Program-made: the position numbers and the translations under genes
The notes under the pieces: model-generated
The model's database searches: none
The model's input: only the letters and a program-made list of their open reading frames with translations
What the model was told of the DNA's origin: nothing
Shown here: positions 7,904-42,667 of the stretch, piece after piece
Numbering within the stretch: the first letter of the stretch is position 1
Layout: every line of letters starts with the position of its first letter
IMG/VR virus record: IMGVR_UViG_3300017700_000409
Coordinates: 9,240 to 73,239 of that record
Direction: 5' to 3' (one strand)
DNA from: a virus
Lineage: Duplodnaviria > Caudoviricetes
Length of the DNA: 64,000 nucleotides

Positions 7904-9259
7904 ATGAAACAAATGTTCAAGAAGCTTTTTCTTTTAGCTGTCCTGACGATCTTCCCTGCCATAGAAGCACAAGCCCTTACTGCTGGGTGCTCTGCTCCGC
8001 CCCCCTCTTATGGGGTGGTGTGGTCTCCAAGCCAGTGGGTTACTTGCCTTTCATCTTTTCAAGCTAACCTTGGATATGTTCCGCTAAATTCAGCGGGCGG
8101 CTCGATGAGCGGGGAGCTATTTGTTGCCCCGTCAATTACCTCTAACGCTCCTCTGAATTTCCCATTGGGAGTTGCGCCTACATCTCCAACGAATGGAGAC
8201 TTGTGGTTCACCTCCTCGGGCCTCTTCTATCGGGCGGGTGGAGTTTCGGTTGGGCCTCTTGCTGGAACCACCAGCCAGACCTTCATCAACCCGACCTTCA
8301 CAGGAACCGCGACGTTCCCTGATGGAACCACCTGGACGTCAGCTGTAATTACTCCGGGAACGGCACCTTGGGCGTCTCTTACATCTACAGGCACAACGAT
8401 ACTTGGCGGGGCTTCAGCGGCTGAAGGCCTTCGTGTATATCCTATCGCAAGTGCGGTAAATCGATGGTCAATGAGCGGCAATACAACGGGAAATTCCCCC
8501 GTTCTTATTGCCGATGGAAGCAACACAGATATCTCGGGCACCTACTATACGAAGGGAACGGGCGGTCATTCTTTCTATACAGGCGCGGCGGGTGGAGGGT
8601 CTACGAGCGGAGGTGTCTTACAGGTTGCGATCCTCAACACCTCATCCGCTTCCCGATATGTTACGATTACAGGAAGTAACGGGGGAACCCCTGCGATAAA
8701 CACTTCCGCTGGCGCATTACAGCTTGGGTCAGCTGCTTCTGCTGGTCTTAATGTAACTGGGGGAACGAACCAACTAACAATAACCGGGGGAACCGCTCCG
8801 GCGATAAACACCAGCGCTGGTAATTTAGCGATAGGAAGCGCAGGGGCAACAACATCGCTTTCTGATGCTGCCGTTCAGCTTTCTAATGCCGGCTATCACA
8901 GTTGTGATAGTTTAGGAACGAGTGGCGCCGGGACTATAACTTGTGGTGGCGCGCCATCTGGATATATCACATATAACGATGATATAACAACCAATACAGC
9001 CGCAGCCACAGGCAATCTCTATTGTATGAATACTGCCTCGGGGGCGTTGACACTAACTCTCCCTGCCTCCCCAAGCAATGGAGCTTATGTTGCTTTCTCG
9101 GATTGTGGCGGAAACTTTGGAGCTAACGCCTTGACGATTGCTAGGAATGGCAGCAATATTATGTATTCGGCGGGTAACATGACGGTATCAACCCCCTACG
9201 CAGGCGGGGTTCTCCGGTACTCGAATGGACGCACAAGCTGGATACTTAGCCCGCTCTAA
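7904..9259 (+). CDS. Tail-fibre/receptor-binding-like protein with N-terminal signal-peptide-like sequence
   Basis: Gly/Thr/Ser-rich; APTSPTNGDLW and TLTLPASPSNG..LTIARNGSNI fibre-type motifs; N-terminus MKQMFKKLFLLAVLTIFPAIEAQA. Confidence 0.6.
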   Translation: MKQMFKKLFLLAVLTIFPAIEAQALTAGCSAPPPSYGVVWSPSQWVTCLSSFQANLGYVPLNSAGGSMSGELFVAPSITSNAPLNFPLGVAPTSPTNGDLWFTSSGLFYRAGGVSVGPLAGTTSQTFINPTFTGTATFPDGTTWTSAVITPGTAPWASLTSTGTTILGGASAAEGLRVYPIASAVNRWSMSGNTTGNSPVLIADGSNTDISGTYYTKGTGGHSFYTGAAGGGSTSGGVLQVAILNTSSASRYVTITGSNGGTPAINTSAGALQLGSAASAGLNVTGGTNQLTITGGTAPAINTSAGNLAIGSAGATTSLSDAAVQLSNAGYHSCDSLGTSGAGTITCGGAPSGYITYNDDITTNTAAATGNLYCMNTASGALTLTLPASPSNGAYVAFSDCGGNFGANALTIARNGSNIMYSAGNMTVSTPYAGGVLRYSNGRTSWILSPL

Positions 9260-21693: not shown

Positions 21694-22071
21694 CTAACAC
21701 CCGAACCGTCTTTCAGCGGCCTGAATAGCATCCATCTCTGCTATAGCCTCTCGCTCATTATCGTAGGCTTTTATCTGCTCCTTCGTGCACTTCGCTCTAT
21801 CGAGGACGGCGATGACCCGCTGGCCTTCGCACCTGTAGCAAGCTACGTCATAAGCCCCGCCTAGATAGTCGGCCTTGAAGTCGGGGTCTTGATCGAAGTC
21901 CTCTTGGGTTAGGCCGTTCCCATCTATCGAAGGGTTGACGTGCGTTCCTTTCCCTGAACACCTTGGACACACCTTGAACTTAGTAGGGAGAGTTACTTCA
22001 ACCTCTTCCATCGCTCCATTGATACTGATCATCATGAAGGTGGTGCATTCTTGCTTATTTTTCATTTCCAT
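21694..22071 (-). CDS. DnaJ-type zinc-finger-containing hypothetical protein
   Basis: CPRCSGKG and CYRCEG repeats. Confidence 0.6.
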   Translation of the reverse strand: MEMKNKQECTTFMMISINGAMEEVEVTLPTKFKVCPRCSGKGTHVNPSIDGNGLTQEDFDQDPDFKADYLGGAYDVACYRCEGQRVIAVLDRAKCTKEQIKAYDNEREAIAEMDAIQAAERRFGC

Positions 22072-22076
22072 TACTC

Positions 22077-23150
22077 CTATTTGACTTGCTTGAGAGGATC
22101 GTAACCAACCTGTTGGTTGAGAGAAATTTTCTCGGCTCTCGCGTGACCTGCGTTGAAGGCCCCGTGGTCGCGCTTTGCGGCCTCGCGTTCTTCCTTGCGG
22201 TCTTGGCGCTCCCAGTACTTCCGGTTGCTTTCCTCTTCCTTGGCCTTTTCCTTCGCGGCCTTCTCGATGATGCGGGCGTAGAGCTTAGGATGGAAGATAG
22301 CGAGGCATTCCATCCCTTCGGCTTCATAGCGTTCTTCCCGCTCAATCTTGGCGTAATACTTCGCCATAGCGTCGGGATCGACAACTTGTCGCGCTTGCCG
22401 TCTCGCCCAGGCCCCTTCGCCATAGCGAGCGTCATAGTTGCCGGCTTCTTCCGATGCGGCATAGTCCGCCAACACCAAGGCGGTCCCGGTCGAGGGAGCC
22501 GAGGCGGGGTGTGCGGCCCGTCTCTCTTCTTCCTTCGCCTTCTTCTGGCGCTCTAGGTCAACGCGGTCCCGCTCCTCTTGGATACGGTCGATCAGGTTCG
22601 CCACAGCACCCTCGCGGAAGTTCATTGCTTTCCGGGAGAAGAGCATTGTTGAATCATAGTTGTACTCGGCCATCCACTCCCGAAGAAGGCGTTCAATTGC
22701 CTGGTCGAGATATCCAACCATTACCTTCGTCATTGCGACGTTGACCTTGCGGCCGATGAGCTTGTGGACCGGGCGAAGAATACGGAAATTTTCCGGGCAT
22801 CCTTGCGACTTCCATTCCCGCCGGTCATTTGAGTTTTTCGGAGGAAGCTGCGATTGAATCATCTCCTTCGTGATCCAGTGCATGCAGAAGTTGAGCTTGG
22901 CGACAGCTGCGTATAAGTCGTGGTTGTATTTGTAGAAGCTACCTTCCACGGCTTCCTTCTCGCGCTTTTCGTCCGTGGCTCCGGACTTCCGCTCAATCGA
23001 CCCCATGTCCAGGTTGTGCTGGGTCATGATCTCCTGGGCCTTCGCGGCCGCAGATGCCGCTTCTTCCGCATTGGGGTTGTTGCTCGCGAGCTTAAGGAGC
23101 TTCACAACGCGGTCGAGGATTTTGTTCATGTCAGGTGTGTTATTAGACAT
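22077..23150 (-). CDS. DUF2786-domain protein
   Basis: KILDRVVKLLKLASNNPNAEEAASAAAKAQEIM N-terminus. Confidence 0.8.
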   Translation of the reverse strand: MSNNTPDMNKILDRVVKLLKLASNNPNAEEAASAAAKAQEIMTQHNLDMGSIERKSGATDEKREKEAVEGSFYKYNHDLYAAVAKLNFCMHWITKEMIQSQLPPKNSNDRREWKSQGCPENFRILRPVHKLIGRKVNVAMTKVMVGYLDQAIERLLREWMAEYNYDSTMLFSRKAMNFREGAVANLIDRIQEERDRVDLERQKKAKEEERRAAHPASAPSTGTALVLADYAASEEAGNYDARYGEGAWARRQARQVVDPDAMAKYYAKIEREERYEAEGMECLAIFHPKLYARIIEKAAKEKAKEEESNRKYWERQDRKEEREAAKRDHGAFNAGHARAEKISLNQQVGYDPLKQVK

Positions 23151-25857: not shown

Positions 25858-26847
25858 TTAGAACTTCCCGTCACCTTGCGCGGCTCTGTCCGCGTCACGG
25901 TTCTCGTCAGTGTAGTTCATCCGGACTTCGCCCTTGTTGATGCTATCTTTGAATTGCTCAGCGCGGTTGACGATATCTTCCCCGCCCGGCAGATCGAAGG
26001 TCAGGAAGCTTTCATCATCCGGGTGATCGGCGGGTTTGTAAACCTGAACCTTCCACGACATCCAGTCGCCATCGTCATTGCTTTCGGGTTGCGTCGTGAG
26101 ACGATACGGACGGAAGTACATTTCCGGATTGTAGGTTCCGCTCTCGCCTTCTCCCTTCGGCTCCTGCCAGCCTTGGATCAAGGAGTTGAGGCGCTTGGCC
26201 GCTTTCCAGTTGCTAGAGGTCATCGAGATGATGCACTCATCGGCCTTGCCGCTTTCGGGATCAACCAAGAACCCGAAGTAATCGCCTGACTCAACGATCT
26301 GCTCCTTGCCGCCGGCAAGAAGGTTGCGGCCCTTCTTGTCCGTCTCGACAACGAGCGCCATTGCGCCCTTTTCGTCCTGGCCCCAGTCCTTCACGAAGCC
26401 ACCGCCATCGCCTTCCTTGCCGCGAAGCTTCCACTGGGTCCAGCGGCGAGTGTACTTCGTGGGAACGAAAATGATGCCCTCTTCGCCATCGAAAAGATCA
26501 GCATTAGCGTTGTTGTAAATCATCCCTTCCGCTGCGCCATCCACAAACTTGTCGCTGCTCTTAACGCAAGGTTGCGACTTCGCTTGGAGGATAACAACGA
26601 ACGGGATCAGAAGGTCACGCTGCTCAAAGCCGTGGCCTTTAGTCTTAGAAGCAGCCGCAAGCATCCGGCTCCTGGCGTCTCCGGTCGTCAGGGCCGTACT
26701 TCCCTTGGAGCGGTTAGCAACAGCGCGGCTCCCCGAGGAAGCGTTGCCGGCTTCCGGCTTGGTCTTGTTGTTCTTCGTTTTGGCTTTGGCTGCTGCGGCC
26801 TTCGCGGCTTTATCAGCAGCGGCTTTCTTCGGATCAATTTTTCCCAT
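25858..26847 (-). CDS. Putative single-stranded DNA-binding protein with Lys/Ala-rich N-terminal tail
   Basis: DLLIPFVVILQAKS, AKRLNSLI and YRLTTQPESNDDGDWMSW patterns of phage SSBs; acidic C-terminus; replication cluster. Confidence 0.7.
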   Translation of the reverse strand: MGKIDPKKAAADKAAKAAAAKAKTKNNKTKPEAGNASSGSRAVANRSKGSTALTTGDARSRMLAAASKTKGHGFEQRDLLIPFVVILQAKSQPCVKSSDKFVDGAAEGMIYNNANADLFDGEEGIIFVPTKYTRRWTQWKLRGKEGDGGGFVKDWGQDEKGAMALVVETDKKGRNLLAGGKEQIVESGDYFGFLVDPESGKADECIISMTSSNWKAAKRLNSLIQGWQEPKGEGESGTYNPEMYFRPYRLTTQPESNDDGDWMSWKVQVYKPADHPDDESFLTFDLPGGEDIVNRAEQFKDSINKGEVRMNYTDENRDADRAAQGDGKF

Positions 26848-26852
26848 AGCAC

Positions 26853-27092
26853 TTATTCCCTTATTAGATTTTCGATGCCTTTTTCAACCGCCAGCCACTC
26901 CGGCATTGTGAAGATGTGGCCATCGCGTTTAACAATACTCATCGGTAAAAATAAAATCTCTTCCTTGGCGACTAGCGCCTGCCTCATTCCTTTCTTGTAG
27001 TTAGGATTTTTAACAATGTAGGACGCTGGGCCGTCCTTCTCATATACAAGTTCAATTTCAACCAGCCGTTTACTACCGCGCCCCGCCATCAT
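26853..27092 (-). CDS. Hypothetical protein
   Basis: FLPMSIV...FTMPEWLAVEKGI pattern common in phage small proteins. Confidence 0.55.
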   Translation of the reverse strand: MMAGRGSKRLVEIELVYEKDGPASYIVKNPNYKKGMRQALVAKEEILFLPMSIVKRDGHIFTMPEWLAVEKGIENLIRE

Positions 27093-27714
27093 CACCCCTC
27101 TTCGGAAAATCAATGCGAACAAAAACCCCCGTCTCTCCATCGAAGACATCAAAAGGAATATCCTTGCCTGCCTTAAGCCGCTCGCGGAAGAACGCCTGGA
27201 GCGTTTGCGGGTGGACCCGTTCTTTCAATTCAACAACAGCCTTGCCCCCCTTCTTAAGCTGCTCAAAGAATTTGCGAGCTAGGGCTGAATCGTTACGGGA
27301 GAACTTTCCAATCAGTTCGCACTTCAGAAGGTCCTCCGCCTTCCACTTCTTCAAGAGGCCCAGTGCAGTTTTGAGCTTCTTCGGTTCCTTGGGCCAAGTC
27401 CCGGTGAGGTAGCTATCCAACTCTAAGTGAGCGCCTGAATCTTGATCTGTGAAATCTCGGATGCCCGCTTCAGCGAAGACGGCGGGGAGAGTTTTTCTTT
27501 GCATCTCCAACATCTTTGACCGGATTTCATCGCAAGAGGTTTCGAGCGCATTCAATTCTCCTTGCAACGCTTCGTATTCCGCGACGCACCTGTGTACTTG
27601 CTTAAGGTCTTTGTTGCTGGCCTTGACCGTCCGCGCGAACATGTCGCGCTTTTGATCCGACTTCTTATCCTTCTTCGCGGGGGCTTTTGCCGCCGCTTTC
27701 TTCTTTGACGCCAT
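27073..27714 (-). CDS. Conserved phage replication-module protein
   Basis: Coiled-coil plus VHPQTLQAFFRE motif; upstream of SSB; basic N-terminal tail. Confidence 0.65.
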   Translation of the reverse strand: MASKKKAAAKAPAKKDKKSDQKRDMFARTVKASNKDLKQVHRCVAEYEALQGELNALETSCDEIRSKMLEMQRKTLPAVFAEAGIRDFTDQDSGAHLELDSYLTGTWPKEPKKLKTALGLLKKWKAEDLLKCELIGKFSRNDSALARKFFEQLKKGGKAVVELKERVHPQTLQAFFRERLKAGKDIPFDVFDGETGVFVRIDFPKRGDDGGAR

Positions 27715-28608: not shown

Positions 28609-31572
28609 TCATCTAGCGGCAACCCGTTTCTCACTCTTCTTCGGCTTCTGGGCCTCGGGCTCCTTCTCCTGATCCTCTTGTTCGCCATTTTTACTCTCCA
28701 GCAACGCTGTGTTTACTTCTAGCTTGCGAACCTTCTCAACGAACACCATCCCATAGGTCGGGGCGTATTGTCCGCGAACAAGGTACCAATCCTCATCAAT
28801 AACCCCGTGCTCAACAATAGGCAGCGCCATCTCTTCGTAGGGTTGCCCCTTCTTAATTCGACACATCACGATCCCAGAGTCATCGGCAACCCGGAAGTTC
28901 AAGGCGAGCGTCGGCCCAGTCAACACCTTCCCGTTACGCTTTTGAACGCTGATCGTTTCATTCGCATCTCGCACGTTCTTAGTCTTTAGCTTCCCGAGGA
29001 ACACAATATTTTGATCTGGTTCCTGGTCGATGACCTCAAGTATTTTCCAAACATGCCCCCGTATCCCGAACTTCTCAGGGTCCTCATAGTATTCAGCAAA
29101 TAAAGTCTCAGCTTCAAAGATGTTATCGAAAGGCGTAACGGGGTTCTCTAGCTTCTTCGCGAGCCCCGCCGGAAGCTGGTATTGCCTCATCGCAACTTCT
29201 TTTACTTTTTTCTTCCCGACTTTTTTGACGATGTTTATTTCAGTGAGTTTTTTATTGCGCCAATCGATAATCTTTTGGGCGGCATTACCGCCGACACCCC
29301 GGATATTCGTAAGCCCTCCATATAGCACACCATTCTTAACAGCCCAGTTGATTTCAGACTTTTCCGCGTCAACGGGGATATATTTGAAACCTTCTTTGAC
29401 TAATTCGCGAAGTGTTAGAATGGTACTATCATCCCCCTTGGAGTTACGTAACTGAGCCGCTGCGTATTCAAGAGGAAACTTGCTTTTAAGAACACAGCAC
29501 CAGTAGGAGACATTTCCATAAGCCACAGCATGGCTTCGGTTGAAGCCGTAGGAGCCCATCGTACACATGTGATCCCAAACGTGCTGACTTTCCTTTTCGG
29601 TGAGTCCATTCTTCTTCGCTCCTTCCCAAAACTTCCCATAGTAGCCATCGAAGTATTCTTTGCCGAGGCTCTTGCCCATCGCTTTACGCAGCGCGTTGAC
29701 TTCTTCCCAGGTCAGATTGCCGATGTCTTTGGCGATCTTCATGACCTGCTCTTGATAGATAACAGTGCCGAAGGTCACTTTTGTGATAGGCTCGGCCATT
29801 GGGTGGAGGTACTTAACCGCCTTCTTACCCGTCCGGACGTTCACGAAGTCGCCTGCAGACCCTGAGACTAGCGGCCCGGGGCGCGCGAGAGCGGTTAAAG
29901 CGATGATGTCCTCGATGTTCTCCACCTTCATCTGCCGGCACAAGCCCTCGACCGCGCGCCCCTCGAATTGGAAGATGCCGGTCATGCGGCGCTTGTTGAT
30001 TACGTCAAAGGCCTTCTTATCGTCTAACGGATAGCTCTGGAGCCAGTGTATGTCCTTGCCTACGTGCTCCAAGGTGTCTTGTATCACAGATAGGGTCCGG
30101 AGGCCTAGTGCGTCAATCTTTAGAAGATTGATCTTAGCCGCGTCACGCCAGTCGACTTGCGCCACACCCGTCCGTAGGTCCACCGAACAATAATGGTTAA
30201 CCGGGTGCTGGGTGATAATAATTCCGGCCGCATGCTGCCCCGTATGGTTGGCGTGGTTCTCGATTTCTCCCGCGACCTTCATGGCGGGATACTTCTTGAT
30301 GAACTCGCGCCCCATTGTATTGTCGGTGAACGTATCCATAATACACAGCATCGCACGCGCGTCGCCCGAGGACCGCTTGAGCATCGCGGCCTTAAGCGCC
30401 TCAGTCTCTTTAATCGGCACCTTCAATTCTTTTGCGACATCGTTGATGGCGCTGTCCGACTTGTACCGGCTTATGGTTCCGATGCGGGCGATGCGGTTAC
30501 TCCCGTACTTCTCCTTGATGTAATCAAATACAAGCTCGCGCCTATCGTCCTGGAAGTCCACATCAATGTCGGGCAAGTCTGCGCGGCTAACGTCAATGAA
30601 CCTCTCGAAGAGGAGCCCATAGTGGATAGGGTCAATGTCCGTGATACCTAGAAGGTAGCAAGTCAAAGAGCCGCAAGAGGAGCCGCGAGCCGGTCCCACC
30701 ACCATATGTTGCTTCGCCCAGGCAATCATATCCGCCAATACAAAGAAGTAATCTTCAAACTTCTTATCCGAGATTAGCGTCAACTCGTTATGAAGCCGGT
30801 CACCATAAACCCTATTTTTCAAGTCAACCTTGCGGACCTTCGCGCCCTCGATACAAAGCTGGCGAAGCGTCTTCTTTGATTCAAACTTAACCATCTCCGC
30901 TTTCGGAAGCGTGACGTTACACTGATCATATAACTTCCCCGTCTCCTTGATAGCGGCCTCGGGGCACCAAGGTACATACACCCTCAACTCTTCCTCAGTG
31001 AGAATGTGAAAGCCCTCGGCAACGTTCTCCTTGAAGCGCGGGGAAATAATCTCATAGGCCCCATAATGCTCGGGACGGGGGTAGTAGTTATTTGAACCAG
31101 CGAGAGGCTTTAGGCCCCGCTCCATTGCTTGCTTGACGTTATACTCCTGGGCCCCGGGCGTTACGGCAACGTATGCCTTCGGCGGGGCCTTCCTCCAGTC
31201 TGTATCCGGGGCGATGACGATTAGGTTGGCCCAGTCTATCTCGTGTAGACCCAACCTGCTAAGCCGCCCCTTATCGTCCTCTGTGCTCTTCGTGGTTATC
31301 CGGTATATCTCCCGGAGCCCTACGTCATTGCGCGCTAGGAAGCGGTAGAAGTACACAGGCACCTTAGTCTCATGCGAGGTGTCCATGACCGGAAGCTCTA
31401 CGCCTAGGACGGGTTTCACGTTCGCCTTCTTCGCGGCATTGAAGAAGTCAACATGCCCCCACGTCCCAGCGCGGTCAGCGATGCCCACTCCACCAGCAGT
31501 GAGAACCTTAGAGGTTTGCCCGAAGGTGCTGCGATAGGAATATTCAGTGCGGCAGAATAGGTTTTTGAACAT
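28609..31572 (-). CDS. dnaE: DNA polymerase III alpha subunit (family C)
   Basis: PHP N-terminus (GVEL), GPARGSSCGSL, LLFERF, PDIDVDF, KIDALGL, YGFNRSHAVAY. Confidence 0.95.
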   Translation of the reverse strand: MFKNLFCRTEYSYRSTFGQTSKVLTAGGVGIADRAGTWGHVDFFNAAKKANVKPVLGVELPVMDTSHETKVPVYFYRFLARNDVGLREIYRITTKSTEDDKGRLSRLGLHEIDWANLIVIAPDTDWRKAPPKAYVAVTPGAQEYNVKQAMERGLKPLAGSNNYYPRPEHYGAYEIISPRFKENVAEGFHILTEEELRVYVPWCPEAAIKETGKLYDQCNVTLPKAEMVKFESKKTLRQLCIEGAKVRKVDLKNRVYGDRLHNELTLISDKKFEDYFFVLADMIAWAKQHMVVGPARGSSCGSLTCYLLGITDIDPIHYGLLFERFIDVSRADLPDIDVDFQDDRRELVFDYIKEKYGSNRIARIGTISRYKSDSAINDVAKELKVPIKETEALKAAMLKRSSGDARAMLCIMDTFTDNTMGREFIKKYPAMKVAGEIENHANHTGQHAAGIIITQHPVNHYCSVDLRTGVAQVDWRDAAKINLLKIDALGLRTLSVIQDTLEHVGKDIHWLQSYPLDDKKAFDVINKRRMTGIFQFEGRAVEGLCRQMKVENIEDIIALTALARPGPLVSGSAGDFVNVRTGKKAVKYLHPMAEPITKVTFGTVIYQEQVMKIAKDIGNLTWEEVNALRKAMGKSLGKEYFDGYYGKFWEGAKKNGLTEKESQHVWDHMCTMGSYGFNRSHAVAYGNVSYWCCVLKSKFPLEYAAAQLRNSKGDDSTILTLRELVKEGFKYIPVDAEKSEINWAVKNGVLYGGLTNIRGVGGNAAQKIIDWRNKKLTEINIVKKVGKKKVKEVAMRQYQLPAGLAKKLENPVTPFDNIFEAETLFAEYYEDPEKFGIRGHVWKILEVIDQEPDQNIVFLGKLKTKNVRDANETISVQKRNGKVLTGPTLALNFRVADDSGIVMCRIKKGQPYEEMALPIVEHGVIDEDWYLVRGQYAPTYGMVFVEKVRKLEVNTALLESKNGEQEDQEKEPEAQKPKKSEKRVAAR

Positions 31573-31761: not shown

Positions 31762-32091
31762 CTAAGCGAGCAGATGCCAGCCGCGCAAATGTAGTTGCTT
31801 TTTCTCGCGTCTATGAAGAATGTAAACGTTCCATTCCTCTGTATCAAAATAAGCTTCACGCAAAAGATTTATGCCCGCGAGAACGTCTGCGATTTCATCG
31901 GCAACCCAAACGCGGTTTACCTTCTGAGTAACCGGCTCACGCTCATCGATCCCTTGTATAATACAGCGAGCCAACGCAGATTGAAGCTCTCCAAGCTCCT
32001 CGATTAGTTTGCCTAACTGTTTCAGTGTAACCGGGTCCGTAATAGGATGCCACGGGTTTGCTGGCTTTAGATCATCTACATCAATCGGCAT
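31762..32091 (-). CDS. MazG-like NTP pyrophosphohydrolase
   Basis: KLIEELGEL...DEIADV (ExxE...ExxD) all-alpha motif. Confidence 0.75.
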   Translation of the reverse strand: MPIDVDDLKPANPWHPITDPVTLKQLGKLIEELGELQSALARCIIQGIDEREPVTQKVNRVWVADEIADVLAGINLLREAYFDTEEWNVYILHRREKKQLHLRGWHLLA

Positions 32092-32092
32092 C

Positions 32093-32347
32093 TCACCCTC
32101 TCTTTTCTCTGTAACCATTTGTTGCGCAAAAATGAGTAAAGTCCAAAGTCTTTAATTTATTAACATAATCTGCTTTTGACCTCCAAAGAGATGGGCATTT
32201 TTCACATGTAACAGAACTATAACGACTTGGTGAAAAACGGTAACCATTGAAGGCGGACCTGTTGCCGTTTCTTTCGACAACCCACCAGCGTCTTTTTTCT
32301 AATGGTTTGTTTCTCTCTTTGCAATTACAAACTGCTCCGCCACTCAT
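32093..32347 (-). CDS. Hypothetical Cys-rich protein
   Basis: CNC and CEKC motifs; AT-rich. Confidence 0.55.
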   Translation of the reverse strand: MSGGAVCNCKERNKPLEKRRWWVVERNGNRSAFNGYRFSPSRYSSVTCEKCPSLWRSKADYVNKLKTLDFTHFCATNGYREKRG

Positions 32348-33222
32348 TTTCTATTCTCCAGAATATGGAAGTAACAACGAGCGCAGGCAATAACATCAGG
32401 TGTGGCGCGGTGAGCCGGGAAGCCTTCGCCAAAGAGATGCTCGTGAAGTTGAGTTAGCGTCATTCTATGGCCCTTGATATCCATACTCATCTGAACTGTA
32501 TCAACAACCGTTAACGGCCAAGGGAACCCTTCCGCCCCAACTCGCTTAAGTTCAAACCCGAGCATTTGAAAATCAAACCAAGGATTGTGACCGACAGCGC
32601 GGCGTACACCCCAGAACAATTCTTTGAGCGTCGGGAGGTAGGTGATGAACTTCGGTTGATCCTTTAGCATCTCATCTGTGATGCCTGTGATCTTCGGGAT
32701 ATTCGGAACCCTTGAGTTGTTAGGATCACCTTTAGGAAGGAGGAAGCCGGGGTTAATAAGAAACTCAACATGCTCAACCTCCTTCTTCCCCTCGAATATT
32801 GTACCAGAGAACTCAATGACGGACGGCTGAAGGTTTAGGTCAACAGCGCCATTAACAGGAAGGCCTGTTGTCTCAGTGTCAAACACCAGCGTCAGGTCGG
32901 GCTTTGCGATCTGCTTTTGAACCTTCCGTTGTACGCCTATCACCAGCGGTACGTTTGCGTCGGCAATCGAAGCGGATGCGGAGGATACGGATGCGCCTGT
33001 CTTCTCCCGAGCGGCCCCGGGCTTCGCGCCCGCTGTCCCAGAGACGGCGCGATCCTTCCCTGGCGTTTCCCGGGAAACCAACTCCGATTTCTTCTGCTCC
33101 GCGCCTTTCGCCTTTGCGCTCATCTCTTGCTTTTGCTTCTTCACGCTTTTCTTCTTCACCACAAGAGCACTCACGCTGCGCCTCTTCAACTGCTGCATCC
33201 GCATATTCCCCGTTCTCGACAT
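32344..33222 (-). CDS. DEDDh 3'-5' exonuclease (DnaQ/epsilon-like); start uncertain
   Basis: VFDTETTGL (ExoI), GHNPWFD (ExoII), HRATPD (ExoIII). Confidence 0.85.
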   Translation of the reverse strand: MSRTGNMRMQQLKRRSVSALVVKKKSVKKQKQEMSAKAKGAEQKKSELVSRETPGKDRAVSGTAGAKPGAAREKTGASVSSASASIADANVPLVIGVQRKVQKQIAKPDLTLVFDTETTGLPVNGAVDLNLQPSVIEFSGTIFEGKKEVEHVEFLINPGFLLPKGDPNNSRVPNIPKITGITDEMLKDQPKFITYLPTLKELFWGVRRAVGHNPWFDFQMLGFELKRVGAEGFPWPLTVVDTVQMSMDIKGHRMTLTQLHEHLFGEGFPAHRATPDVIACARCYFHILENRK

Positions 33223-33553
33223 TGTCTAGCTCCTGTTGTATTGCCCAGTAGACGATTGAATCAATTGCGCTGTCTTCGTGCCCGCCTGTATTAAAGTTCT
33301 TACAATAGCGAGAGAGCTTGCTTATGATGTTGAAGAGATTAGATGCCCTCGCAAAATCCCCTTCCGTCTCTAGTTTCAATCCGGACGGGAACAATACTTT
33401 CAGCATAACCCCGAAATATTCATAGTTGTTCCCATACTCGCGGTTTTTCTCTTTGAACATTTCGATTGCGCATCTCATTACCGCAACGGGATTGTGAATA
33501 TTCACCTCTTTCATCGCCTTAACAAACTCCGGATCAGGCCGATTCATTTGCAT
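32879..33553 (-). CDS. Nucleotide-modification-associated domain 1 (Nmad1/DUF1599-like) all-alpha pyrophosphatase
   Basis: KNREYG, KLSRY and DSAIDSIVY motifs in first about 110 aa; C-terminal tail overlaps the exonuclease frame. Confidence 0.6.
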   Translation of the reverse strand: MQMNRPDPEFVKAMKEVNIHNPVAVMRCAIEMFKEKNREYGNNYEYFGVMLKVLFPSGLKLETEGDFARASNLFNIISKLSRYCKNFNTGGHEDSAIDSIVYWAIQQELDNVENGEYADAAVEEAQRECSCGEEEKREEAKARDERKGERRGAEEIGVGFPGNAREGSRRLWDSGREARGRSGEDRRIRILRIRFDCRRKRTAGDRRTTEGSKADRKARPDAGV

Positions 33554-34097
33554 TGATCCTTATGCAAGCTTTGAAATCGAAGCCCAGTGCCTCGCGGCTC
33601 CCGAAGATAATATTATGGTAGGTGCGCTTGCCGGCAATAATCGGGTTGGTGTGCTTGTAGGAGGTGTCTTCCCAGACGGGGTGTATATCTCGCTGCCCAA
33701 GATGAAAACGCCAATCCTTCCCCTCTTCCTCTGTGCAATGAATTCCGAGATGGCTTATGAAAGGCATATCCACACCCATGCTTCCGAGTTTTTCATAAAG
33801 GCTCGGAGCATAGAGGCCCAGTGGAGATATTCCACGGTTTGAAACAGAGTGGAAATTGTGAAGCGAAAGGAACTGGATCAACTCCAACTCCTTAAAAGGA
33901 ATGTCTTGCTCATAGTTATAGAACAGTTTGAACTCAACTTCCTTGGGCTCCGGATAACCGGCAACAACCGCTCTGCTATAAGCGTGGTCGTGAGACCATG
34001 TTGATCCGCCAATCCACTTCATCAAAGTAGATGGGAACCGCGTGGCGATAGCGAGTTGATCGAAGTCCGCTTCACGCCCAAAAATATTCATCTTCAT
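33534..34097 (-). CDS. VOC/glyoxalase-fold-like protein
   Basis: DQLAIA, ELELI and SHLGIH segments match metal-ligand positions of VOC modules. Confidence 0.45.
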   Translation of the reverse strand: MKMNIFGREADFDQLAIATRFPSTLMKWIGGSTWSHDHAYSRAVVAGYPEPKEVEFKLFYNYEQDIPFKELELIQFLSLHNFHSVSNRGISPLGLYAPSLYEKLGSMGVDMPFISHLGIHCTEEEGKDWRFHLGQRDIHPVWEDTSYKHTNPIIAGKRTYHNIIFGSREALGFDFKACIRINANESA

Positions 34098-34231
34098 AGT
34101 TCTAAGTCTCCATCGCAATCGCCAATTGAACCTTTTTCATTCGCCTCGCGCTCTTTCTTAGCGTCCTCGGGCGTCCAACCCGCTTCAATTAATCTTTGCT
34201 CAAACTCATCACACGACATGTCCTTACCCAT
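34094..34231 (-). CDS. Small acidic hypothetical protein (45 aa)
   Basis: MGKDMSCDEFEQRLIEAGWTPEDA...; fills gap between SDR and VOC genes with ATGA overlap. Confidence 0.45.
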   Translation of the reverse strand: MGKDMSCDEFEQRLIEAGWTPEDAKKEREANEKGSIGDCDGDLEL

Positions 34232-34233
34232 CT

Positions 34234-34995
34234 CTAGGCTCCATACGGAATGATACAGCCGGTTAGATACTTATGCCGCTCTTTGTTCTGGAGGAGGAAG
34301 GCAATGAACTCAGCGACTGCCTTCGGGGGTGTCGGAACCCCGTTGGGGATCATGGATGCTTGCTTAGCTTCCGCCTCTTCCTCTGTCCAGCCCCGGAGCC
34401 CCGGGACTTGGGACTTCACTGAATTACTAATCCCCGTCCCCTCTAGGACGTTCGGAGCGATAGCGAACACATCGATGCCGTGCCTCGGCTTAAGCTCGCG
34501 GGCCATTTGCCGCGTCATCATGTGAACTGCGGCCTTACTCGCGTTGTAGATGTGGGTGCAGGTCATCGGTGTCCAGGCCGCTGTGGAGCCGATGTTGATA
34601 ATTGTGCCGCCTTCAGACTTATCGAATGGGCGATACTTGCGGCCGTCCGGTCCTCGGGCCGACAGATAGGGGATAGCCGCCCGGGTCATGTTGAAGATGC
34701 CCTTGCAGTTTGTATCCATAATCGCATTCCAGTCTTCGTCTTTGGCGTTCTCGATAAAGCTGAGCGGGGAAACTCCTGCGCAGTTGATGAGCACGTCAAT
34801 CGAGCGTTTGCGTTTCTCTCCTGGAGGACAGTGATGATCAAGGAACGCTTCGCAATCAATCGGGCTTCTCACATCATATACAGGATATGAGAAATCCAAA
34901 ACTTCATGTGTGGTCTGGGCGTTGTCTCCTTGAAGCGCAAATTTAATCTCTTGACCAAGGCCGCTGGACGCTCCGGTGATAACAATACGACTCAT
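34234..34995 (-). CDS. Classical short-chain dehydrogenase/reductase (SDR)
   Basis: TGASSGLG, NCAG, GSTAA and YNASK catalytic motif. Confidence 0.9.
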   Translation of the reverse strand: MSRIVITGASSGLGQEIKFALQGDNAQTTHEVLDFSYPVYDVRSPIDCEAFLDHHCPPGEKRKRSIDVLINCAGVSPLSFIENAKDEDWNAIMDTNCKGIFNMTRAAIPYLSARGPDGRKYRPFDKSEGGTIINIGSTAAWTPMTCTHIYNASKAAVHMMTRQMARELKPRHGIDVFAIAPNVLEGTGISNSVKSQVPGLRGWTEEEAEAKQASMIPNGVPTPPKAVAEFIAFLLQNKERHKYLTGCIIPYGA

Positions 34996-35453
34996 TTAAA
35001 AAACTCCTGTCTGTAGAGAAGGGCGGGGATGCCGTTCATGTTGAATGCGTTCGCAACGTCTTTCCGGTCTTCGATGATTAGAGAGGCCTTTGCTATGGGT
35101 TTGAAATCTCCAAGAAATTGAGCGTACATCTTCATCTTTAGAACAGGCGACGTGTCTTCATTCCCGTAAGGACGCATGAAAACGGCATCTTGCGGGATGT
35201 TGGCGGCTTTTATCTGCTCAATAGTTTCGTTGCGGTACTCCTCGGAACGGGCCGTAAAGATGATGGAGTTGTTATCGAGAGCGAAAGCCCGCGCCACCAT
35301 TACCATTTGCGGGATAGGAGGGGCTACGAGTTGGAACCTTACAACCGCGTCATAGTCCTTTTTGGCGTAAGCCTCCTTGGAGACATCCCGGAACTTAAAC
35401 AAAACACCATCCAGGTCCCAGATGATTGATGTTTTAAATTTTAGCGGCGGCAT
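34992..35453 (-). CDS. HAD-family phosphatase (T4 PNK phosphatase-like)
   Basis: WDLDGV motif I, FTAR motif II, K and IIEDR motif IV. Confidence 0.8.
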   Translation of the reverse strand: MPPLKFKTSIIWDLDGVLFKFRDVSKEAYAKKDYDAVVRFQLVAPPIPQMVMVARAFALDNNSIIFTARSEEYRNETIEQIKAANIPQDAVFMRPYGNEDTSPVLKMKMYAQFLGDFKPIAKASLIIEDRKDVANAFNMNGIPALLYRQEFFK

Positions 35454-35807
35454 CTTTTGTTCCTTTCTTACAGGCTTTAGGGTCTGGAGACCAACGGGTG
35501 AATACTGACTTTGTATTACAAGATGAAGCGACCCGTTTTTGTTCAAAGGCGCAGTTAACACAAACCCGGTGTTCGTCCGTTGGATAGCTCCAGGCGTGCG
35601 CTACATATACAGTTGGCTTCCGCGCCATCACACGCCCTCCTCAGGCGGTTGCTTCTCACAATGGTTAGGATCGCCAATTACAGCAATTTCATTTGGGGTG
35701 GCGGAACAATATTTACAAAGCATATTTCCGCCATGACCTAGGTTTGCATATTTAAATTCATGAGGACCATACTTCGCCCGCTCCTCTTCCGGCTTCCAAG
35801 CGAACAT
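35434..35807 (-). other. Two small Cys/His-containing ORFs (35434-35631, 35628-35807)
   Basis: Overlapping start/stop codons inside the operon; CxxC motifs. Confidence 0.45.
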
Positions 35808-36535
35808 TAGCCAATCTCCTGACGGGCGCGGTCAATATCCTTGAGCGCATCGACAGCCAGAGTGGTGTCTTGGTTCCGGAACTTCGCAATGAACGCCTCG
35901 ACCTTATCGAAGACACCCCGGCCCCTCGGGAATAGGAACTGCTCCGCCCAGGGGTGGACATCGAGAATAGCGGAGTGCATAGCCGCTAGAACCTCGCGGT
36001 ATTCGTCCTGGACCCGTCCGCCCGTCCGCTTCCGGGCTAGCTCCGACATTGTGCGGAGGTTGAATTTAGCGACAAGGTTGGTGTGGATGTTTAAAGGAAG
36101 GACGCCCCGGGCATCTTCCGCCGGCACTCCCATAGCAATCATATCATTATAACCTTCGCGAATTTTATCCATTGTGCGCTGATAAATCCCGAATTGTTCT
36201 CTCATCATCAGAGGGACAAGAGACTTCGGCACAACGTAAGTGAATGCCGCATTGATAAGCATCCGCAACGTTTGTTGAGCATAGGAGCCTTGGCGCGTCC
36301 TTACGAGTTGATTGGCGAAGGCGCGGCTCACGTCCGTAATCAAGAAGACATAATCACAGAACTCCCAAGAGCTAGGGATTGTGCGGCTCATATACTTGAG
36401 GCCTTCGGCCTTCTCCTCTTCCGACATCGCCTGTATCTTCTCGAAAGTATCCTTGCCAAGCGTCAGCCGGGTTTCCTTTGTGAAGAGAAGAAGGTCAACG
36501 GCACCGTGAGTGTAGTTAATCAGTTCAACTTTCAT
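35807..36535 (-). CDS. thyX: Divergent flavin-dependent thymidylate synthase homologue
   Basis: SRAFANQLVRTRQGSYAQQTLRM aligns to the ThyX motif; ARGVLP, NLR and RKR retained. Confidence 0.8.
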   Translation of the reverse strand: MKVELINYTHGAVDLLLFTKETRLTLGKDTFEKIQAMSEEEKAEGLKYMSRTIPSSWEFCDYVFLITDVSRAFANQLVRTRQGSYAQQTLRMLINAAFTYVVPKSLVPLMMREQFGIYQRTMDKIREGYNDMIAMGVPAEDARGVLPLNIHTNLVAKFNLRTMSELARKRTGGRVQDEYREVLAAMHSAILDVHPWAEQFLFPRGRGVFDKVEAFIAKFRNQDTTLAVDALKDIDRARQEIG

Positions 36536-36541
36536 TTCCTA

Positions 36542-37483
36542 TTATCCTTTCTTTACGATTTCTTTGATCATTCCATAGCGGTCTTTTTGTCCAATCATCT
36601 TATCAACAAGTTGGACATCTTGTACAACATCATCAAGGAGTATCTGCCTCCAAGTCGCGAAACGCCCCACAGAGTAAATCCCAAACTTCTCAGTCGCATA
36701 AAGAATGAATGAGCGGCGCACCTCATCATCGACCGAAAGAAGCTTACCAAACTTCTGGGCCTTTACTCCTTCAACTTTTACCTGCGCACCTTCGATCCCG
36801 AAAACTTGCTCAAGCAACGGGTGTATACGCCACCCGCCCTTATCCACCCCCTCAGGGTCAGAAACATATTCGAGCGTTAAACGGCTCCCCGTTATCGAAG
36901 CCCGATACAAAGCAATATCACTCTCGGGAAAATAAACAGTTTGGTACAAATCAATATCGGGGCTCTCAATGGTAATCGTCTTTGTCCATATCTTCTTCGC
37001 CTCAAACTTCACCTGAGGCTCAACCCCGAGAATGTTAGCTAAAGCCGGCATTGGGATGGTGCTAATAAGCGGCACAGAGCCATCGCCATGGACTGCAAAC
37101 TCTTCTAGCCCAGTTCCATAGACAATATTAACACCTTGCGCGAGCCGCTTTAGAAAGTCGGGAGGTGCGATGTACCGCTCGGCTGGCGCGAGGTTGAGGA
37201 TGCTGCGGCCTGTCGCGCGCCCCGATACCTTAAGCGAATACTGATTGTTGTGTTGAAGCGTGCCCGTAGTCCGGAGGCGCTTACCATCCCACAATCCTTT
37301 TTGAACAGCCACCTTCTTAAAAGCAATCCCCGTTGCCTCGGCCACTGCGTTAGTTCGGAAGCGGAGGAGAGCGGCGTGGTTGTCGGGTAAGCTCGGCTGA
37401 AGTTCGTGTATGACGGGGGAACGGTTTTTCAGAATGTGTGCGGTTAGCAGGCCAGCCATCCCGGCCCCGAAGATTTTTATCAT
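36542..37483 (-). CDS. FAD-dependent oxidoreductase, UDP-galactopyranose-mutase/PPO-like
   Basis: GAGMAG dinucleotide fold with terminal Glu; C-terminal GRFATWRQILLDDVV resembles the Glf GRL..Y.Y.DM..V motif. Confidence 0.65.
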   Translation of the reverse strand: MIKIFGAGMAGLLTAHILKNRSPVIHELQPSLPDNHAALLRFRTNAVAEATGIAFKKVAVQKGLWDGKRLRTTGTLQHNNQYSLKVSGRATGRSILNLAPAERYIAPPDFLKRLAQGVNIVYGTGLEEFAVHGDGSVPLISTIPMPALANILGVEPQVKFEAKKIWTKTITIESPDIDLYQTVYFPESDIALYRASITGSRLTLEYVSDPEGVDKGGWRIHPLLEQVFGIEGAQVKVEGVKAQKFGKLLSVDDEVRRSFILYATEKFGIYSVGRFATWRQILLDDVVQDVQLVDKMIGQKDRYGMIKEIVKKG

Positions 37484-37501: not shown

Positions 37502-37541
37502 GAAAAGCGAAACGCCCCCGGGGAGATAACCCCGGAGGCGC
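37502..37541 (-). terminator. Intrinsic terminator-like hairpin
   Basis: GCGCCTCCGGGG/CCCCGGGGGCGT stem followed by U-rich tail on minus strand. Confidence 0.6.
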
Positions 37542-37567
37542 TTTCTTAGTCGATTGTAGCAGGCAGA

Positions 37568-40606: not shown

Positions 40607-41812
40607 CTAATCGCCCCTCAAGATTTTACCTAGTTCAGACTCAGGGCTAACAATCTTCTTCATATCGTCAATAATTCTTTGATTTCGCACTGCTCTGTCT
40701 CTCCACTCTTTTAAATCAAAAACTAAAATTTCAAGCTCGTCAGCAGAGAGCCTTAAGTCATTAGCAATTTTACTCGCAACATCAGAATTCCATTTAGGGT
40801 CGCTTACCATCTCAAGGCCCTCTGTCGTCCGTTTCTAAAATATGAATTCGTTCGTGCATCCAACTTTGAACATTCGGGTTCGCTTCCAGGTTTTGAATAT
40901 CCAAGGCCGTAAGTTCCCGGACAACTTGCCCTGAAGGTTGAACAATAAAGCCGCGAAGGTTCTTCACCTCAGGGTCTTCATCTTTATAAGCAATTTCATA
41001 ATCAAAAGTCAGATTTACATACTGCCCGCGCGACAAACTGATCCCCGTCGGCAACGGGGAGTTGTCTATTTTGATTGTTGTAGTCGGCATCTCAGTTCCC
41101 CTTCTCTAACAAAACTTCACGGTCATTGTCGAAGAGGCGAAGCCCCGAGAGCTTGCCCCAGTATTGTGATCCGTCAAACCACACTCTCTTTTTGTCCGGG
41201 TTCTTGATCTTCGATAGTAGCTTCATTAGTTCTAGCACTGTGAGATGCTTCTTGTTCTGGTCGAATACCGCCTGCCCATAGTCCTCTTCGCCTTTCGCTA
41301 GAGGCTTAGGGGATGTTGCCGGCATATCCGAACGCCCGTGGAGCTTGGTGAGTTGATCTTTACTTAATTTGTTGTCGCGCTTCGATGCGAAGAACTCTAG
41401 GGGCTTTAATTGCTTCTTCCCTATCTTCGACACCTTTGCCTTAAGTTGCTTCGACATCGCTATCTGTTTCATCGTTTTCGCTTCCGATAGCTTTTGCTTC
41501 ACTTTGGATTTTGTCGAGTTCTTCATATTCGTCTTCTTCGACATTTGGAAATTCCTTTGCCTCTTTCTCGATTGCTTCGGCGCAGGAGAAACACATCATA
41601 GGCAAATCGTCCTCGACATGTACCCCGCGCAAATGGTTACCGCAAAAATATCCTTCGCAAGCGCCATCAGGCCCGACCCCGTGCATCCCGCCGCAAGCGT
41701 AGGATAAGCCCCGGTCAATAGTCTCGGTACAACCTGGGTGGTCGCAGAAGGCCTCGATGGCGTAACCAATCTTGCGGCCCTTGCTGTCCTCTCCGCAGTT
41801 AGCCCAGCCCAT
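40607..41812 (-). other. Four small hypothetical ORFs (40607-40810, 40812-41090, 41092-41457, 41441-41812)
   Basis: Tandem ORFs; last is Cys/His-rich (CDHPGC, CxxxH, CFSC). Confidence 0.55.
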
Positions 41813-42479
41813 TGATCTTCTCCTTCTTCACCTTCCAGTTTGGGTGGCTATTTGCACCTAGAAACTTTAAGGCGCTTTCTTCATCTGGAAAACTTTTTGC
41901 CTTGTGCTGGTGTGCTGTAGGTGTATCGTTGCCGCAGCTATCTAATCCCTGCCTTATATACACTCCGGTTATTTCGTTTCTGATATAATATCTTTCTTCC
42001 TCTCTCGCCATATCAATCCCAATCCAGTGAACGGCGATTATGGGCTGTATCTCCCATTCACGCCCCATAGCTTTCCACCTCTCCTCAGAGTCAGAGTGGT
42101 TCGGGTAGGGTGCCGCAGCAACGATGCGCTTAGCGTTAGGAAGAGCAATCAACATATCCACGCAGAATTTGCAGGGCGACACCGTCACATAGATCGTGTG
42201 TACCCGGCTCGGGTCCGTACAATGCGCTAAGGCATTTACCTCGGCATGAATAGCCTTACATTCCGTCAACGCAGTCCCGCTCGGGGCGTCCGCTCCCTTA
42301 CAAGGGAACCCTTCGTTACAGTGAGGCTGGCCCTTAGGCACGCCATTGCGGCCGGTCGAGAGGATGTGCCCGTTCTCATCTACGAGAACGCACCCGACCG
42401 AACGGCGGATACAAGTAGAGCGTTTCGAGGCTACAGCAGCGTGCTCTAGGTTCGTTTGGTCTTCTGTAGGGCGGTTCAT
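41799..42479 (-). CDS. dCMP deaminase family protein with C-terminal extension
   Basis: STCIRRSVGC, HAEVNAL and SPCKFC zinc motifs. Confidence 0.85.
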   Translation of the reverse strand: MNRPTEDQTNLEHAAVASKRSTCIRRSVGCVLVDENGHILSTGRNGVPKGQPHCNEGFPCKGADAPSGTALTECKAIHAEVNALAHCTDPSRVHTIYVTVSPCKFCVDMLIALPNAKRIVAAAPYPNHSDSEERWKAMGREWEIQPIIAVHWIGIDMAREEERYYIRNEITGVYIRQGLDSCGNDTPTAHQHKAKSFPDEESALKFLGANSHPNWKVKKEKINGLG

Positions 42480-42667
42480 CTCACAATCCTTTTTGATCCT
42501 GATTCCCATTGCTTCTCTAACTCTTTCATAAAGGCATATGGTGGGCTTTGTACTCCTGTTATGTATTGTCTAAGCAAATCATCGGAGCAATTAAGGACAT
42601 CCATAACCTTTGCGAATTTATCCGGATCAGCAACAAGCTTGAGAAGTTGGTTCTGGTGAACGCTCAT
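42476..42667 (-). CDS. Small HTH protein
   Basis: LNCSDDLLRQYITGVQSPP XRE-like helix pattern. Confidence 0.5.
   Translation of the reverse strand: MSVHQNQLLKLVADPDKFAKVMDVLNCSDDLLRQYITGVQSPPYAFMKELEKQWESGSKRIVR

Follow-up and report, generated by a model that had tools for sequence, protein, structure and literature searches.

The question raised by this locus is whether a compact block of genes in an uncultured phage, opening with a flavoprotein gene and closing with the gene of the replicative polymerase DnaE, serves ordinary nucleotide supply or the manufacture of a modified DNA base. The block runs on the minus strand from 37483 to 28609 of the window, by which we mean the whole stretch analyzed here, i.e. 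64 kb out of a virus record of 73,239 bp that is complete and has direct terminal repeats (IMG/VR record IMGVR_UViG_3300017700_000409, positions 9,240 to 73,239). Weighing the evidence set out below, we find the case evenly balanced that the block is this phage's form of a cassette confined to phages, one that would make a thymine-replacing pyrimidine with a sugar-derived group on C5, as found in the DNA of Pbunavirus. The flavoprotein and the variant of ThyX encoded next to it appear, from comparison of their homologues, to constitute a phage-only and widely conserved core positioned next to the phage DNA polymerase.

The flavoprotein and its ThyX partner

The first core gene (36542-37483, minus strand) encodes a 313-residue protein predicted to bind flavin adenine dinucleotide (FAD) in the fold of UDP-galactopyranose mutase (UGM). 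It belongs to phrog_4828 and to no Pfam family, having no Pfam match even at E <= 10, GLF (PF03275) included, and a precomputed Pfam domain was found in 0 of 120 of its relatives; its homologues fall into at least 1204 protein clusters, all on phage-sized contigs. An AlphaFold2 model built on 51 homologues (pLDDT 90.4) had UGMs as its best PDB matches in Foldseek (E 1e-11). With VIA, the model superimposed on the UGMs of A. fumigatus and T. cruzi at Z 21.2 and a root-mean-square deviation of 3.6, with 300-302 of the 313 residues aligned, vs. Z 17-18 for bacterial UGMs, 19 for protoporphyrinogen oxidases and 17 for amine oxidases. The protein shares with UGM (PDB 3ukk, 4dsg, 3hdq, 1i8t) the same fold over nearly its whole length as well as the FAD-binding motifs, but it is shorter (313 vs. 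367-510 residues), has an identity of 14-16% with eukaryotic UGMs, which match it best, and of 11-18% with those of bacteria, and never occurs within a glycan locus. Within the family, the GxGxxG motif is accompanied by invariant R41, K62, K85, R93, R103, R194, K247, R274 and W278; eight of the invariant residues are basic and none is a cysteine. The family profile and T. cruzi UGM gave local, non-significant matches at 'YRA', which includes the invariant R194, and at 'GRFxxWR', which includes the invariant R274 and W278, with a whole-sequence E of 0.94. Against E. coli Glf, hhalign paired only the first 24 residues, comprising the dinucleotide-binding motif, at 9.9% probability. The label 'Glf-like' that a preliminary description of this DNA had given to the protein is apt with respect to the fold (Z 21.2) and unproven with respect to the family, given the lack of a Pfam GLF match.

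The second core gene (35807-36535, minus strand) encodes a ThyX that matches Pfam Thy1 (PF02511) over its full length (8e-31; 107.7 bits, the cut-off being 24.8). We aligned the profile of its clade to the ThyX proteins of T. maritima (1kq4) and M. tuberculosis (2af6). Like these canonical members of the Thy1 family, the clade retains the arginines that bind deoxyuridine monophosphate (dUMP), namely R78, R80, R90, R147 and R174, all of them invariant, plus Q180 and E182 of the Q..E motif; unlike them, it has an invariant Ile in place of His53, Phe in place of His59, Thr in place of His79 and Ala in place of Asn85, with further replacements at Ser88 (Thr), Tyr91 (Met or Ala) and His178 (Arg). 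In the window protein, the His53/Asn85/Tyr91 triad reads Ile/Ala/Met and the signature RHRx7S reads R-T-R-QGSYAQQ-T (RTRx7T), with RTR or RNR found throughout the clade. As for the role of these residues, His53 of ThyX has been described to stack the folate pterin while hydrogen-bonded to Tyr91 and Asn85, mutation of Tyr91 rendered the methylation step 1000-fold slower, and free formaldehyde can charge the ThyX flavin as a carbinolamine (PMC11940539). Among the control ThyX proteins, RHR was present in 3 of 3, with His at the His53 site in those of Clostridium phage CP26F and Bacillus phage 1_ICo-2020 and Tyr in that of Sulfolobus virus STSV1; in Gordonia and Microbacterium phages, the proteins called 'ThyX-like' displayed the same residue losses as the clade. 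The profile alignment agrees with the 'divergent ThyX' of the preliminary description, the folate-stacking and acid-catalyst triad being gone and the arginines for dUMP and FAD being kept.

To what extent do these two genes travel together? Peptide patterns specific to the ThyX clade matched at least 597 stretches in IMG/VR, of which at least 553 were confirmed, and the best 80 loci were examined in detail. The flavoprotein was present in 71 of these 80, the remaining 9 having less than 2 kb of sequence upstream of ThyX, such that the pair was found at 71 of 71 loci with enough upstream sequence; DnaQ and DnaE lay downstream at every locus extending far enough. Among GenBank phages, tblastn with the flavoprotein yielded 362 records, with identical counts for flavoprotein and ThyX in Pseudomonas (292/292), Escherichia (27/27), Serratia (9/9) and Xanthomonas (6/6) phages, and tblastn with ThyX recovered the same genera at 36-48% identity vs. 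only 26-35% for other phage ThyX. The pair is located beside DnaQ-DnaE in Pbunavirus, Wifcevirus, Kylevirus and 40-kb podophages, and distantly in Microbacterium phages, and the same gene order was seen on marine and NCBI metagenome contigs as well as in Kyle, Pbunavirus and the 40-kb podophage VA-RY-3. At the BLAST level, the genes common to the window phage and VA-RY-3 are those of the flavoprotein, ThyX, DnaQ and DnaE only. In Microbacterium phage OverHedge (5091-11435), the gene of a 268-residue 'oxidoreductase', distantly homologous to the flavoprotein (hhalign 89%, E 2e-6), lies immediately upstream of and overlaps a gene for a 439-residue ThyX-like protein that is followed by a split DnaE; judged by this homology, the pair reaches actinobacteriophages.

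The slot between ThyX and DnaQ is variable in content, harboring SDR and VOC genes in 37-48 of the 80 loci (by tblastn, SDR in 48, VOC in 37 and DUF6378 in 59), with VOC travelling with SDR. Where the window has SDR and VOC, VA-RY-3 carries between the variant ThyX and DnaQ a sulfotransferase-family protein (21766-22521; PF13469, 30.4 bits), which may signify a sulfated or otherwise different side chain. The survey of gene neighborhoods for which the preliminary description had called shows the flavoprotein and ThyX to be strictly co-inherited and tied to DnaQ-DnaE, and the PB1-like neighborhood that it had mentioned is real, in that Pbunavirus F8 and 14-1 both carry the cassette.

Modified thymidine in Pbunavirus and the possible role of the cassette

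The DNA of F8 is cut by EcoRI, HindIII, XbaI, DraI and BsaI and remains uncut by five enzymes with TG in their site (Yee et al. 2025 preprint, PMC12191111). [quoted passage not shown] The literature that we searched contained no gene assignment for the Pbunavirus modification and no paper tying a UGM-like protein to a phage ThyX. By mass arithmetic, 362 corresponds to dU + pentose + 2H - H2O and 390 to dU + hexose - H2O, both isomeric with the authors' readings. In 30-kb replication-side segments of F8 and 14-1, 27% of T precede G; with one quarter of T replaced, essentially every TG would therefore be modified.

The Pbunavirus module (F8 ORF065-ORF055, 14-1 ORF65-ORF55; ORF, open reading frame) resembles the block of the window in having the same flavoprotein (34-35% identity) and ThyX variant (~37%), with HAD plus DUF6378, DnaQ and DnaE in the same order, and all six parts of the cassette are present in the window. 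F8 homologues of the window proteins were recovered for the flavoprotein (4.5e-39), ThyX (1.1e-35), HAD (3.7e-4), DnaQ (1.7e-26) and DnaE (2.8e-159), and F8 ORF057 matches the window DUF6378 domain at 6e-10. Unlike in the window, HAD and DUF6378 are fused in Pbunavirus, five small ORFs lie between the flavoprotein and ThyX, and SDR and VOC are absent; the window phage, known from sequence alone, has HAD and DUF6378 split, with SDR, VOC and a MazG-like gene within the block. The structural genes of Pbunavirus are distantly related to those of the window phage, which, as the gene comparison indicates, is a distant relative of Pbunavirus carrying the cassette with split genes and with SDR, VOC and MazG-like genes added. 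Between F8 and 14-1, which differ in the mass of the new nucleoside, agreement is 81% for the HAD-DUF6378 fusion and, with unusual divergence, 78-82% for the small ORFs that surround ThyX, vs. 92-99% for the other proteins of at least 100 residues. The fusion was considered as the determinant of the mass difference and rejected, the two versions differing mainly in an acidic linker repeat of the AEDAAEDA type, and no determinant emerged.

A search of the 73-kb genome for ThyA (PF00303) gave no match at E <= 0.1, with the control search positive in 10 of 14 genomes, and the Tet_JBP dioxygenase (PF12851) had no match in the genome either; the absence of a ThyA-type gene for 5-hydroxymethyluracil (hmU), as reported earlier, is thereby borne out. 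Based on the conserved flavoenzyme pair, the loss of the folate triad, the changing tailoring slot, the absence of ThyA and TET/JBP and the DNA chemistry of the carriers, we regard the cassette as the best candidate, still unproven, for the source of the sugar-bearing thymine of Pbunavirus. We postulate that the ThyX variant would alkylate C5 of dUMP via a flavin-N5 iminium, with the carbon drawn from an aldose or sugar phosphate and not from folate, while its UGM-fold partner would prepare or present the sugar; the dUMP itself can be supplied by a dCMP deaminase predicted upstream of the block. The HAD protein, together with DUF6378, would take off a phosphate, SDR and VOC, in those lineages that encode them, would reduce the side chain or epimerise it, the MazG-like enzyme would clear the competing canonical deoxynucleoside triphosphate (dNTP), and DnaE-DnaQ would replicate DNA using the modified product. 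Alkylation of dUMP at C5 with a sugar-derived carbon is chemically reasonable because the UGM and ThyX families both carry an electrophilic carbon on flavin N5, with a covalent flavin-sugar adduct in UGM being stated in the title of PDB entry 5hhf. In its most specific form, the ThyX variant and the UGM-fold protein would jointly put the sugar chain on dUMP C5 by a carbon-carbon bond, through a flavin-N5 sugar iminium and reductive or non-reductive alkylation; we offer this as a tentative scheme that we think rather unlikely to prove correct. Under this scheme, C1 of the pentose or hexose, rather than a folate one-carbon unit, would become the 'methyl' carbon in the hypermodified thymine, and the masses of 362 and 390 Da would fit as dU with a reductively added pentose and dU with a hexose, being equally consistent with it as with the authors' readings.

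As a proxy for protection at TG, we calculated observed/expected ratios (O/E) of 6-bp palindromes under a maximal-order model, comparing TG-containing with other palindromes and including three control genomes. The TG-containing palindromes were unavoided in F8 (0.96 vs. 0.73 for the others, which were avoided) and in 30 pooled cassette loci (0.99 vs. 0.70), VA-RY-3 had 0.92 vs. 0.75, and the controls T7 (0.60 vs. 0.58) and LUZ24 (0.62 vs. 0.69) showed avoidance of the two classes to about the same degree; this pattern is suggestive of TG protection, as seen against three control genomes only, of which phiKMV (0.59 vs. 0.43) had a ratio similar to that of the cassette carriers. In the window, the outcome was ambiguous, with values of 0.88 and 0.69 under the same model and 0.66 and 0.68 under a first-order model, the signal vanishing in the latter owing to a strong depletion of TGCA and CATG themselves. 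We also observed in the window that GATC (O/E 0.69) is the third most depleted 4-bp palindrome and that CTCGAG, GGATCC, CGATCG, ACCGGT and TTCGAA each number 0 vs. 9-20 expected.

Several considerations weigh against the cassette as the source of a modified base. With the modified base confined to TG, at least one step must read DNA, since a free dNTP pool cannot give such a pattern; the TG context and the 27% match thus contradict a pure dNTP-pool route and imply an enzyme acting on DNA, and a conserved candidate for this DNA-reading step was not found. Co-inheritance with DnaE could mean that a replication module moves as a single unit and not that the carriers have a common chemistry. The flavoprotein is a structural relative of UGM only, with no match to GLF and with protoporphyrinogen and amine oxidases at Z 17-19. 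In the window, TGCA (O/E 0.51) and CATG (0.62) are the most depleted 4-mers, and the palindrome signal is lost under the first-order model. The window phage is uncultured and known here from its genes alone, with its DNA chemistry extrapolated from Pbunavirus, and the link from cassette genes to modified base is plausible but unproven, in the window phage as in any other. The preliminary description had proposed a base-modification pathway that installs a sugar- or aldehyde-derived chain purely at the nucleotide level. In view of the TG context in Pbunavirus, where about a quarter of T is replaced and 27% of T is in TG, such an exclusively nucleotide-level route is contradicted, and the cysteine-containing mini-ORFs included in that pathway also fall away; what stands is that the block does not resemble ordinary nucleotide supply, as judged by the co-inherited pair, the loss of the triad and the tailoring slot.

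How far can the same genes be accounted for otherwise? In an ordinary nucleotide-supply or housekeeping module, the ThyX variant would still make dTMP, perhaps with altered folate binding or with the flavoprotein as its reductase, the HAD and MazG-like enzymes would clean the pool, and the Pbunavirus modification would be carried out by other genes. This explanation, which we consider unlikely while giving it serious weight, draws on a ThyX that scores far above the Pfam cut-off and retains all of its dUMP-binding arginines, on the frequent occurrence of a dCMP deaminase and a thymidylate synthase in phages, on the binding of NAD(P)H by eukaryotic UGMs (as the titles of PDB 5vwt and 5vwu state) and on the TG context, which requires a DNA-level enzyme outside the block. 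However, a ThyX deprived of His53 and Tyr91 should be crippled in its folate-dependent reaction, ThyX requires no partner reductase and yet the pair is invariant, the SDR, VOC and sulfotransferase found in the slot have no role in dTMP supply, and no further gene is common to all carrier lineages compared.

A second possibility is a route through hmU, with the ThyX variant yielding 5-hydroxymethyl-dUMP that enters DNA, the UGM-fold protein, SDR and VOC making an activated furanose or polyol donor and an unrecognised transferase joining the latter to hmU at TG after replication. The post-replicative transferase would account for the TG context, but neither a glycosyltransferase nor a kinase nor TET/JBP was found among the ORFs scanned of the window genome. 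The masses of 362 and 390 Da equal 5-hydroxymethyldeoxyuridine plus a tetritol or pentose minus water, as read by the authors, and UGM, SDR and VOC are well suited for synthesis of a sugar donor; on the other hand, a hydroxymethylase would still be dependent on folate, with the folate-stacking histidine being lost, and the other three quarters of T, as plain thymidine, would necessitate a second source of dTMP or reduction on DNA. We judge this route to be distinctly improbable. That the sugar-type enzymes are unrelated to DNA and alter a host metabolite or envelope sugar, their placement in the replication operon being for timing only, is very improbable indeed, for although UGM, SDR and VOC folds often occur in pathways for cell-surface sugars and E. 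coli glf is found in an O-antigen cluster, the flavoprotein family has been seen on contigs of phage size only, next to ThyX and DnaE in every case, bears no Pfam GLF signature and is not accompanied by transferase or export genes.

Arrangement of the block and its accessory genes

The gene order given in the preliminary description was recovered on the minus strand in our analysis, with most of its labels verified by family matches, including those of HAD, SDR, DnaQ and MazG-like proteins by Pfam or PHROG. All features described in this section are on the minus strand. The start of the block is marked by a terminator-like hairpin (37510-37543; 14 pairs, 10 of them G-C, with a T-rich tail), which is situated in the 84-nucleotide gap preceding the flavoprotein gene and is the strongest terminator-like site within 15 kb. 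The dCMP deaminase (41799-42509; phrog_174, 9.7e-36; HAE...PCxxC motif), a likely supplier of dUMP, is encoded 4.3 kb upstream of the block, as had been noted before. As a nucleotide query against GenBank phages, the whole block gave a single 66-nucleotide match and nothing more. Start and stop codons overlap by 1-4 nucleotides at four junctions (ThyX/c59, c59/c65, HAD/SDR and DnaQ/z84, where c59, c65 and z84 are small ORFs described below), and overlaps of 20-26 nucleotides are found at c65/HAD (with the HAD ATG at 35453), VOC/DUF6378 and z84/MazG-like; the overlapping operon described earlier therefore holds at seven junctions and does not extend to DnaE, which is 189 nucleotides away from the MazG-like gene. 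Catalytic motifs are intact in HAD (DLDGV), SDR (TGxxxGxG and YxxxK), DnaQ (DTE) and the dCMP deaminase (HAE and PCxxC).

Downstream of ThyX are two lineage-specific ORFs with no family match, the 59-residue c59 (35628-35807; CxxC...HC) and the 65-residue c65 (35434-35631; CxxC...C...C), the latter overlapping the long reading of the HAD ORF. A third small ORF, the 84-residue z84 (32093-32347), is zinc-ribbon-like (CxC...CxxC) and not conserved. None of the three has a counterpart in the 80 related loci, and c59 and c65 have none in the nearest relative either; the two Cys mini-ORFs thus exist as ORFs, as first described, but were rejected as conserved parts of the pathway because the relatives are without homologues.

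The HAD ORF (34992-35561) encodes a putative phosphatase of the PNKP-phosphatase type (PF25109, HAD_PNKP, 1.5e-5 and 25.6 bits, under the 27.6 cut-off; phrog_415, 4.6e-16), and the start of the gene is likely the ATG at 35453. It is followed by a classical SDR (34234-34995; adh_short, 9.7e-34), a 45-residue acidic ORF (34094-34231) that is uncertain as a gene, and a 194-residue protein of the VOC (glyoxalase/epimerase) fold (33534-34118), with SDR and VOC being candidate accessory tailoring enzymes. By itself, the window VOC protein has no Pfam match; the label given to it earlier is upheld at the level of its family of 132 representatives, in which 13 of 45 relatives match Glyoxalase_4 (PF13669) and the family profile matches PDB 3gm5 at 2.2e-4. 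An acidic ORF of 41 residues occupies the position of the 45-residue ORF in Pantoea phage Kyle; both start with MG(K/E)D and have DCxGD near the end, with no similarity by BLAST.

The next ORF (32879-33553), of 224 residues, had been called 'Nmad1-like'; 20 of 24 of its relatives match DUF6378 (PF19905), a predicted all-helical domain corresponding to residues 1-125 (33179-33553), and the ORF matches just the C-terminal part of phrog_4889. An AlphaFold2 model of the domain comprises five helices (pLDDT 85) and had only generic helical matches among solved structures (best Foldseek E 1.0, best VIA Z 7.0). Beyond the domain, the ORF continues for ~100 low-complexity residues, in another frame, over the N-terminal extension of DnaQ (32879-33222, a 344-nucleotide overlap). 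Since relatives are either ~100-110 and up to 130 residues long, ending at the start of DnaQ, or fused behind HAD (F8, 14-1, Kyle), the extra residues of the window ORF are probably not real, and the overrun into DnaQ may have arisen through loss of a stop codon, through an error of assembly or from a frame kept open by base composition.

DnaQ (32344-33222; RNase_T, 7e-17; phrog_192, 2e-38) is predicted to be a 3'-5' exonuclease with a low-complexity N-terminal extension, and is 272 residues long in the nearest relative. The MazG-like gene (31762-32118; phrog_4856, 7e-13) encodes a putative all-alpha nucleoside triphosphate pyrophosphohydrolase; within 8 kb, such a gene was found in 0 of the 80 related loci and is sporadic in relatives, Kyle being the only one with a homologue (its 'pyrophosphatase', 5e-7). 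The block ends with the DnaE-type replicative polymerase (28609-31572; PF07733, DNA_pol3_alpha, 9.5e-68; PF17657, 3.8e-43). Downstream of DnaE, 25858-27714 encodes Pam3 gp34-like and gp33-like (DUF7307) proteins, which are also found in F8 (ORF051 and ORF052) and on the marine cassette contigs as conserved companions of the replication module.

Significance and relation to known modification systems

Pbunaviruses belong to the phages in most frequent use against Pseudomonas aeruginosa, and Wifceviruses withstand nearly all restriction systems tested; for the DNA protection of both, the cassette provides a short and testable list of candidate genes. Its protein clusters number at least 1204 and its confirmed loci in IMG/VR at least 553, and it is present in well over a thousand phage lineages. 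If the cassette does make modified DNA, then DNA of this kind would occur in nature much more commonly than has been recognised and two well-studied flavoenzyme families would have acquired new chemistry; if, in addition, a carbon-carbon bond were formed as outlined above, this would amount to a class of reaction new to both families, and modified DNA would be reached by a new route. Knowledge of the genes would help to predict which defenses (END nucleases, type IV enzymes) might stop a therapeutic phage, and would explain problems in sequencing and cloning of such DNA.

Among known systems, the thymidine hypermodification of phages ViI, M6, SP10 and phiW-14 (PMC5889632, PMC8989533) is similar in that a part of the thymidines is converted to bulky C5-substituted bases and the genes are located near replication genes, and both systems presumably defeat restriction. 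Those phages utilize a ThyA-type dUMP hydroxymethylase, a 5-hmdU DNA kinase and aGPT-Pplase (PMC5889632, PMC8989533). In contrast, the window genome has no member of the ThyA family, the kinase and aGPT-Pplase were not recognised in it, and the core of its cassette comprises two flavoproteins of other families. A second comparison is with TrmFO and MnmG, flavin- and folate-dependent enzymes acting on uridine in RNA; unlike what is seen in them, the flavoprotein family of the window has no invariant cysteine, and the likeness drawn here is one of chemistry. TrmFO and MnmG are FAD enzymes of the Rossmann type, in which an electrophilic carbon borne on flavin N5 is passed to C5 of uracil (PMC11940539; PMC10723064), and they offer a precedent for such chemistry at the level of the polymer.

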